The translations under genes were made by a program, and so were the position numbers. From contig JAFYKQ010000097.1 of the NCBI GenBank assembly GCA_017537565.1, positions 1-48,709 on the forward strand: 48,709 bases of DNA. Reading direction: 5' to 3'. The notes under the pieces were generated by a model that did no database searches, was not told where the DNA came from, and worked only from the letters and a program-made list of their open reading frames with translations. The DNA comes from Flavobacteriales bacterium (GTDB lineage: Bacteria; Bacteroidota; Bacteroidia; Flavobacteriales; UBA1820). Shown in pieces: positions 17,882 through 18,139 of the stretch (position 1 is the first letter of the stretch; every line of letters begins with the position of its first letter).

Positions 17882-18068
17882 AAAAAATCGTGGGACAAAA
17901 CTCCGCACTTGCTTTTCGAGGTCTTAGGATACCGTGTAGTACAAATGAGAATTAAGCCCACGTTAGAACCGTGGGCGTTCACTTCTTCTCTTGTACTACT
18001 TTATACGAAAGTTCCTAAGTTTCGAAAAGCAAGATTAAAGTTAACGCTTTTTATGATGTGGTTCCCAC
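17882..18068 (-). ncRNA. candidate structured RNA (5' leader/attenuator of the PEGA-like operon, or an independent sRNA); family not recognised
   Basis: Five nested perfect helices are present:
- 17908-17919 / 18022-18033 (12 bp)
- 17923-17929 / 18013-18019 (7 bp)
- 17936-17944 / 17991-17999 (9 bp)
- 17947-17951 / 17986-17990 (5 bp)
- 17956-17962 / 17970-17976 (7 bp, 7 nt loop)

An outer stem pairs 17890-17896 with 18061-18068. On the minus strand it is followed by GA+UUUUUU (17882-17889). The strand is not certain, because two possible G-U pairs (17920/18021, 17921/18020) would favour the plus strand. Confidence 0.4.
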
Positions 18069-18131
18069 CACTATATTATTGGATATTTTTTCTATTTATT
18101 TTTATAGGCAATAAGTCTTTTAGTTATAGGA

Positions 18132-18139
18132 CAAAATTA
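18132..18139 (-). promoter_or_regulatory. -7 promoter box (TAATTTTG on minus strand) upstream of the structured element and the PEGA-like operon
   Basis: The plus strand reads CAAAATTA. It is the only TAnnTTTG match on the minus strand in the 17807-18196 gap. Confidence 0.4.

Follow-up and report, generated by a model that had tools for sequence, protein, structure and literature searches.

The window analyzed here, the whole of a 48,709-nt stretch of a contig from a Flavobacteriales bacterium (JAFYKQ010000097.1), carries two tandem PEGA-like genes on its minus strand, and our subject is a long structured element in the intergenic gap that precedes the first of them. The genes, at 16970-17806 (-) and 15857-16957 (-), are paralogues of the repeat families D1/D2, 77-79% identical; neither protein has a Pfam match or a relative in the PDB. 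The RNA of the element corresponds to the minus strand. The original prediction placed an unrecognised structured RNA between a promoter box and the first gene, together with a U-run, and the tests that it proposed now support it. On our best explanation, which taken as a whole has roughly even chances, transcription of the PEGA-like operon begins at a TAnnTTTG promoter at 18139-18132 on the minus strand, and the element is its 5′ untranslated leader. The gap contains two mechanical open reading frames (ORFs), one of 77 amino acids with a TTG start (17909-18142, plus strand) and one of 43 amino acids with a GTG start (17851-17982, minus strand). A coding explanation was rejected because these ORFs are not conserved and the length of the element ranges from 146 to 173 nt among its members.

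The five nested helices of the original prediction are all present in the window sequence, where 126 nt hold 40 Watson-Crick pairs, interrupted by internal loops of 6x13 and 4x9 nt. The segment 17875-18075 folds with an energy of -73.6 kcal/mol on the minus strand (z -7.68) and -68.9 kcal/mol on the plus strand (z -7.99), and none of 200 shuffles matches this. Within the window the 12-mer of the longest helix is confined to its two arms, and the covariance model R1, described below, found no second copy in the window with its filters on or off. The other landmarks also lie where they had been placed. GA-UUUUUU follows the element on the minus strand (U-run 17887-17882), the box TAATTTTG is read at 18139-18132 and is conserved across the family, and the ATG at 17806, expected about 75 nt past the U-run, was found at 76 nt. 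The features are listed in the 5′ to 3′ direction of the RNA.

18132-18139, minus strand: -7 promoter box TAATTTTG (TAnnTTTG, Bacteroidetes-type), assigned from sequence and family conservation
18104-18109, minus strand: 5′ motif GCCUAU; UGCCUAUG in most relatives
18058-18071, minus strand: hairpin P0, GUGGU-GGGA-ACCAC, present in the window clade only; relatives have other hairpins there
18045-18054, minus strand: AUAAAAAGCG, A-run and GCG, forming the 5′ side of the closing helix (helix 1, 92.7% of cells paired); the R1 match starts here
18037-18044, minus strand: UUAACUUU, 5′ strand of helix P1b, pairing with GGAGUU at 17904-17899; family consensus UUAGCUUU
17908-18033, minus strand: rod, helices P1-P5 and conserved internal loops, with apical hairpin GCCCACG/CGUGGGC
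17908-17919 with 18022-18033: 12-bp helix of the rod
17923-17929 with 18013-18019: 7-bp helix of the rod
17936-17944 with 17991-17999: 9-bp helix of the rod
17947-17951 with 17986-17990: 5-bp helix of the rod
17956-17962 with 17970-17976: 7-bp apical helix, closing a 7-nt loop
17892-17897, minus strand: bulge UGUCCC, predicted 5′ strand of a pseudoknot with GGGACA; unpaired in single-sequence folds of most relatives inspected
17882-17891, minus strand: ACGA and UUUUUU, 3′ strand of the closing helix and U-run (17887-17882), terminator-like
17842-17857, minus strand: small hairpin AGCUU-AGGGAC-AGGCU, its loop GGGACA (17851-17846) being the predicted 3′ strand of the pseudoknot
17804-17806, minus strand: ATG of the first PEGA-like gene (16970-17806), 76 nt past the U-run

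Two aspects of this arrangement differ from what had been proposed. An outer stem, GTGGGAC with GTTCCCAC, was thought to close the element; it can be read in the window, and it is not conserved in relatives. We have rejected this stem (GUGGGAAC/GUCCCAC in the RNA), since in the relatives GUCCC is a bulge that is predicted to pair with the downstream GGGAC loop, and a helix between the A-run and the U-run closes the rod. Nor does the element appear to end at the U-run, as the functional unit runs on to the hairpin with the GGGAC loop.

A scan of a genome collection with 19 specified bases of the 5′ arm gave two metagenome-assembled genomes from deer gut. One of these (L002) is ~82% identical to the window and syntenic with it, and the other (L001) has a different upstream neighbour and only the downstream PEGA-like gene in common with the window. 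The 278-amino-acid PEGA-like protein has 1592 homologues, with its C-terminal ~110 residues ~80% identical in Alistipes. Protein-family and PDB searches with this C-terminal domain returned nothing useful, and it is a highly conserved envelope domain without known function. In all 11 orthologous or paralogous PEGA-like genes that we looked up, the element lies 55-80 nt before the start codon and the neighbours differ each time. The element travels with the PEGA-like gene and not with its neighbourhood. Every stem has been rewritten in the Alistipes copies with the pairing kept, P1 for example changing from CUUGCUUUUCGA/UCGAAAAGCAAG to GGUCGCUAA/UUAGCGACC. Both conservation and abundant compensatory change, which the original prediction had proposed as a check, are thus found upstream of the PEGA-like homologues.

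The association is not, however, specific to the PEGA-like genes, as had been supposed, because the element is also found ahead of a prophage packaging operon and of genes that fall into at least 34 unrelated clusters. Scanning metagenomes with a pattern of three blocks (AGCGTTA..TGGGCT..GTCCCAYGNTTTT) gave at least 120 loci with at least 81 distinct cores of 146-173 nt; among the matches listed, ~5 of 81 distinct cores have a PEGA-like domain downstream. More than 100 distinct relatives are now in hand from Alistipes, uncultured Bacteroidales and prophages. The source names include Alistipes onderdonkii, A. putredinis, A. finegoldii, A. communis and uncultured Alistipes, and one member is annotated 'MULTISPECIES Bacteroidales', with a Bacteroides sp. 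cluster member. Downstream ORFs fall into the 34 or more clusters mentioned above and encode small lipoproteins, a 123-amino-acid membrane protein, a porin-family protein, helix-turn-helix (HTH) proteins, a protein of 73-95 amino acids, BspA-type leucine-rich repeat (LRR) proteins, Fib_succ_major proteins and proteins with a type IX secretion system (T9SS) sorting domain. Pfam matches among the downstream proteins were to BspA LRR, Fib_succ_major, DUF5036, HTH_11 and the T9SS sorting domain, and most of the proteins had no match. By a crude rule, 20 of the 34 cluster representatives have a signal-peptide-like N-terminus. Several copies occur per genome, before different genes, and several loci hold two tandem units, each ahead of its own gene.

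The same three-block pattern applied to viral contigs gave 26 loci, and in most of these the order is integrase, Hc1-like protein, element, small ORF, DUF5675 and terminase large subunit. Elements of this prophage class (for example L146 at 11891-12046 on the minus strand, L142, L152 and L157) are 148-156 nt long, with a promoter ~20 nt before the rod, and they lack the entire module of 5′ motif and mini-ORF that is described below.

At L168 a second, partly degenerate copy (2594-2765 on the plus strand, 68 bits) stands ahead of the next gene, and the near identity of its 5′ half to that of the first copy (1266-1438) suggests a recent local duplication. The copy at L087 (1788-1959, plus strand) looks chimeric, with the 5′ half of its rod of L031 type, the 3′ half of L053 type and the arms of P2 unpaired. 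Either the assembly joined two copies of a multi-copy element here, or paralogous leaders have recombined.

For the comparison of structures, 73 distinct cores were aligned (alignment A1). RNAalifold on a plain MAFFT alignment recovered only P1, P2 and P5, and single-sequence folds were therefore projected onto the alignment to seed the covariance model R1, which has 171 positions and 66 pairs. R1 gives the window copy 122.5 bits when it is read on the minus strand but 12.1 when it is read on the plus strand, and its scores are 120-150 bits on one strand versus 12-28 on the other. When 100 distinct sequences were aligned by the model (alignment A2), 87.2% of cells were paired, compared with 72.2% in shuffles (0 of 500 as high) and 36-51% in slid controls. 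Two-sided changes occur in 52 of the 66 pairs, with 1047 compensatory cells against 341 in shuffles. Helices 4-10, which make up the rod, are 74-96% paired, and nearly every pair has compensatory changes. G.U accounts for 12.5% of paired cells and A.C for 2.2%, a ratio of 5.7 to 1. This excess indicates that the element is RNA and that the folded strand is the one running toward the ORF. It is also incompatible with a symmetric DNA palindrome or MITE, although the window copy itself has only Watson-Crick pairs.

The architecture is thus a ~150-nt rod, P1-P5, closed at its base by A-run/GCGU with ACGY/U-run, and directly before the closing helix there is a bulge of 6-7 nt, (U/A)GUCCC. The sequence entering the rod is AUCAUAAAAAGCG-UUAACUUU in the window and ACAUAUAAAAGCG-UUAGCUUU in the consensus, and the 3′ strand returns as GGAGUU in the window and AAAGUUA in the consensus. 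Many unpaired nucleotides are invariant, and they are concentrated in the internal loops and at the rod base. The search pattern fixed GUCCC, AGCGTTA, TGGGCT and four U residues in most of the sample. The bulge motif and a run of 4-7 U residues recur in the 11 loci reached through their protein, and also in four of the five copies that the model alone detected. One of those five (L004) is weak, at 29.6 bits, and has neither GUCCC nor a U-run.

Beyond the U-run we find a second conserved part of the unit. Of 104 units, 93 have the sequence GGG[AG]C at 5-65 nt past the U-run, where 4.1 would be expected, and none of 97 has it in a control window upstream; in 76 of the 93 it lies inside a hairpin loop. 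The small hairpin is ~20-40 nt past the U-run, and its stem covaries (permutation p<0.0005). Variation within the box is confined to an A or G opposite U (GGGAC 69, GGGGC 12), so that U-A or U.G is kept. Moreover, covariation links the nucleotide just before GUCCC to the one just after GGGAC (U-A 49, A-U 16, U-U 5, A-A 3; Fisher p 2.9e-9, a test that, like the other Fisher test reported here, takes units as independent and ignores phylogeny). In alignment A3 the flanking pair is U-A 38 times, A-U 14, U.G 2, C-G 1 and other 14, the inner pair is U-A 57 times and U.G 12, and 90.3% of cells are paired versus 85.0% in shuffles and 21-53% in slid controls. GUCCCA was fixed by the search pattern, and GGGAC and the covarying positions were free. 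Two adjacent units at L082 have U-A in one and A-U in the other; each is matched to its own partner, and the pairing is therefore cognate and in cis. In the second copy at L090 a shortened GUCC accompanies a loop with GGAC. These comparisons support a pseudoknot in which the bulge (U/A)GUCCC pairs with the hairpin loop GGGAC(A/U).

The base of the rod has the form of an intrinsic terminator or attenuator, with a stem (GCGU/ACGY) followed by 4-7 U, a promoter upstream and an ORF downstream. Elsewhere in the window there is an ordinary bidirectional intrinsic terminator at 7537-7575, AUAAAAAACGCGG...CCGCGUUUUUUAUA (AUAAAAAACGCGGCACCC...GGGUGCCGCGUUUUUUAUA), which R1 scores at 21 bits on both strands. 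The A-run, GC clamp and U-run at the base of the rod resemble it. In L010 (~2700-2760) and other Alistipes-type leaders hairpin P0 carries ACGAAAAGCG. This nearly copies the A-run and GCG strand of the closing helix, and could therefore compete for the U-run strand. The CCCAYG after the bulge repeats the 5′ arm of the apical hairpin, and could pair with CRUGGG, the 3′ arm, as an alternative terminator stem; only three variants are informative, and although compatible with this pairing they are too few to decide on it.

The relation of the rod to promoter and gene is also conserved. Of 92 distinct units, 70 have a TAnnTTTG box at most 140 nt ahead of the rod, whereas shuffles predict 5.8 and the opposite strand gives 12; only three of the 92 have one between the U-run and the ATG. 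Expression of the ORF should consequently depend on read-through of the leader. A same-strand ORF begins within 130 nt in 123 of 131 units, the distance from U-run to ATG having a median of 59.5 nt and an interquartile range of 53-64. In most units the 5′ motif, as UGCCUAUG, opens a mini-ORF: 63 of 92 units have the motif with a stop in frame, and 55 of the 63 encode 2-3 residues, the frame being preserved while the stop varies among UAA, UAG and UGA. There is no mini-ORF in the window clade, where AUA replaces AUG. The minimum free energy (MFE) structure of the full leader of the window pairs GCCU with the AGGC beside GGGAC, in addition to GUCCC:GGGAC. Across the family 5′ GCC(U/A)AUG co-occurs with GGC just past GGGAC (39/12 versus 5/29, Fisher p 1.6e-8). 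The positions flanking GCCU:AGGC do not covary and a permutation test of duplex length gave p 0.07, and for this reason we treat a long-range closing helix of GCCU with AGGC, which would take the place of the local hairpin, as a possibility only.

We judge the chances to be about even that the element is a cis-acting leader of attenuator type, from a large uncatalogued family of Bacteroidales and prophage leader RNAs, for which we infer the following mechanism. The rod and U-run would act as a weak intrinsic terminator, at which part of the transcripts end; the base of A-run, GC and U-run speaks for attenuation through intrinsic termination that is at least partial. In transcripts that read through, the pseudoknot between bulge and loop would dock the rod beside the region where ribosomes load, which in Bacteroidetes occurs without a Shine-Dalgarno sequence. 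The docked rod would then set translation, mRNA stability or both. As the pseudoknot can form only after read-through, and its hairpin is ~15-25 nt before the ATG, a role in tuning translation or stability is the more likely one. Where a mini-ORF of 2-3 codons is present beside GCCU, it may couple folding of the leader to ribosome traffic. The order of promoter, stem with U-run and ORF that led the original prediction to a riboswitch or attenuator layout is upheld, although a classical metabolite riboswitch is made unlikely by the 34 unrelated downstream clusters.

A number of points weigh against this mechanism. By the rules of Escherichia coli, a helix of 4 bp followed by a bulge of 6-7 nt beside the U-run makes a poor terminator, so the strength of the terminator is doubtful. 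The pseudoknot partner is downstream of the U-run, and cannot influence termination there. We found no conserved antiterminator alternative among the family members, and in the prophage class the rod is preceded by hardly any sequence. The start near 18125 and the 3′ end at 17882 are both predictions from sequence alone. As loops and bulge are strongly conserved in sequence, they may have a specific partner. Lastly, the Fisher tests assume independent units, and conservation of the bases fixed by the pattern rests on the 11 protein-found loci and the five model-only copies.

A bolder proposal is possible, though we think it doubtful. The family may be a new class of cis-regulatory RNA confined to Bacteroidales, comprising rod and pseudoknot, that binds a conserved cellular component or signal. 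It would govern a regulon of envelope and surface genes in Alistipes and relatives and would have been captured by temperate phages to gate the packaging operon, with the mini-ORF tying the switch to ribosome traffic in most members.

Other explanations have to be weighed against the attenuator-type leader. The leader might be a riboswitch-like sensor, in which a conserved core at the rod base, made up of AAAAGCGUUAGCUUU, the bulge with GUCCC, the loop with GGGAC and perhaps also GCCU:AGGC, binds a small molecule, an ion or a conserved cellular protein such as RNA polymerase, the ribosome or an RNA-binding protein; binding would switch a regulon of envelope genes, and phages would have borrowed the switch. 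The clustering of invariant unpaired nucleotides at the rod base and internal loops, the pseudoknot across a variable linker, and the several copies per genome before different genes are all consistent with a sensor. The same can be said of the MFE structure of the window, which closes the whole leader with GCCU:AGGC stacked on GUCCC:GGGAC, and of the co-occurrence of the 5′ motif with the GGC beside GGGAC. We nevertheless regard a sensor as unlikely, given 34 unrelated downstream clusters with no metabolic theme, a rod with few junctions, a GCCU:AGGC helix without covariation, and the emergence of no ligand or protein candidate. It is also improbable, in our view, that the element is a constitutive module for mRNA stabilization or processing, as a simple stabilizer would need neither conserved loop sequences nor a covarying pseudoknot. 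Furthermore, the A-run/U-run pairs stay A-U or G.U and do not covary freely, which points to a constraint on the U-run itself, whereas in such a module the U-run would be a strand of the closing helix only. There the rod would shield the 5′ end or be cut by a double-strand-specific RNase, and the GGGAC hairpin would protect the processed mRNA, leading to high expression of surface proteins. The long and nearly continuous helices would suit this, as would the start of the prophage-class rod ~10 nt past the predicted transcription start, the bias of downstream genes toward secreted, lipoprotein and surface proteins, and the fixed spacing to the ATG.

An independent gene, composed of promoter, rod and U-run terminator, could encode a stable small RNA (sRNA) of ~180-280 nt that acts in trans, its GUCCC contacting for example GGGAC loops in other mRNAs; the downstream gene would then be a mere passenger. 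Bacteroides species do have paralogous sRNA families (FopS) and sRNAs derived from 5′ untranslated regions (UTRs), the present family has many copies, and the A-run/U-run closing helix would give a blunt rod resistant to exonucleases. To this we attach little probability, since a promoter lies between U-run and ATG in just three of 92 units, the spacing to the ORF is tight, and the pseudoknot covaries unit by unit even in adjacent units of one genome, which argues for pairing in cis. Finally, the window copy folds to a similar degree on either strand and has only Watson-Crick pairs in its stems, and dispersed copies exist, some in prophage contigs, as might be expected of an element acting in DNA, whether a MITE or REP repeat, a recombination site or the single-strand promoter of a mobile element. 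This we find scarcely credible. The copies are diverged and compensatory changes keep their pairing, the 5.7 to 1 ratio and the R1 scores set out above both single out one strand, and the orientation and distances to promoter and ORF are constant. There are no terminal repeats or target duplications, and blastn gave no match in plasmid or phage collections. Dispersed near-identical copies, which the original prediction had named as grounds for abandoning an RNA, are not what we see; the copies are diverged, strand-specific and always before an ORF.

The closest parallels to an attenuator-type leader come from terminator-based leaders. Phage lambda has PR′, 6S RNA and tR′ ahead of the late operon with terminase. 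The UpsM leader of Rhodobacter sphaeroides, ahead of the dcw cluster, is likewise reported to be terminator-based (PMC5089854). Like these, our element comprises a promoter, a non-coding leader of ~150-300 nt, and a hairpin with a U-run before the genes, one class lying directly before a prophage terminase operon. Its hairpin is, however, a conserved 150-nt rod in place of a short GC stem, a bulge breaks the U-run helix and the pseudoknot extends past the U-run. It also serves dozens of unrelated genes, and neither an antiterminator protein nor an alternative structure has been identified for it. The ZTP riboswitch has a pseudoknot across a variable linker, and our element resembles it in its conserved unpaired nucleotides, its pairing of an upstream bulge with a downstream loop, its place in the 5′ UTR and its U-run; in contrast to ZTP it has no coherent set of metabolic genes and no Rfam match, and is rod-like. 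The E. coli ompA leader and the R1.1-type sites of phage T7 are 5′ UTR stabilizers or RNase III hairpins. Long irregular hairpins with internal loops before many genes, for envelope proteins and phage operons, are common to these and our family, but the latter is strongly conserved in sequence and has a pseudoknot and U-run. BTncRNA_FopS is similar in being a multi-copy, Bacteroidetes-specific RNA family adjoining genes, although there is no relationship in structure or sequence.

Searches of databases identified no known family. Rfam 15 at gathering score matched only a tRNA within the window (22612-22685, minus strand), and at E<=10 the locus gave only sub-threshold entries at chance level, so that no family was found at either setting in the scan that the original prediction had suggested. 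None of 21 related loci had a match above threshold (twenty had none at all, and L040 none above threshold). The single match to BTncRNA_FopS is sub-threshold (17798-17863, plus strand, 17.2 bits, E 6.7), lies on the opposite strand, antisense over the PEGA-like start codon, and is probably due to chance. A blastn search of plasmid and phage collections with a typical member gave no match. A literature search by topic and by sequence strings found nothing relevant to the element, and of the 408 supplementary files of PMC8040213 the first 200 do not contain the family motifs. Other elements are the subject of Fremin & Bhatt 2021 and of the Minerva/UG27 preprint (bioRxiv 10.64898/2026.09.22.753630). 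The array motif of the UG27 reverse transcriptase, AUCNNNNNNNUANAG, was not noticed in the sequences inspected, in which no pattern search was made for it, and no reverse-transcriptase gene was seen in the window or the prophage neighbourhoods examined. We therefore set UG27 apart.

Membership of several known kinds was rejected. A metabolite riboswitch is not indicated by gene association, as the downstream genes share no pathway or transport theme. A MITE or REP repeat does not agree with a single copy in the window, diverged members and a fixed orientation. For 6S RNA there is no match to the Rfam 6S or 6S-Flavo families, there are several copies per genome, a central bubble is lacking and the element sits in a 5′ UTR. 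A type III toxin-antitoxin RNA of ToxI kind would not have unrelated downstream genes, and no tandem repeats occur within a unit. The element is a new family within a known kind, the structured cis-acting leader RNAs, is absent from Rfam, and has a function that is predicted only.

Alistipes and related Bacteroidales are major gut bacteria. To our knowledge almost nothing has been established about their post-transcriptional regulation, and as far as we know they have no Hfq, ProQ or initiation led by a Shine-Dalgarno sequence. Genes for dozens of surface, secreted and prophage proteins that share a conserved leader of ~250 nt would amount to a hidden regulon, and the leader would give a handle on the control of envelope proteins and the timing of phage late genes. 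It might also provide a portable module of expression or regulation for the engineering of Bacteroidales. With more than 100 distinct members, strong covariation and a predicted pseudoknot, it is a well-supported candidate for an Rfam family.

Elsewhere in the window we noted an intergenic direct repeat of 66 nt, 71% identical between 15737-15802 and 32101-32166, one copy of which lies upstream of a small lipoprotein gene (15248-15718).

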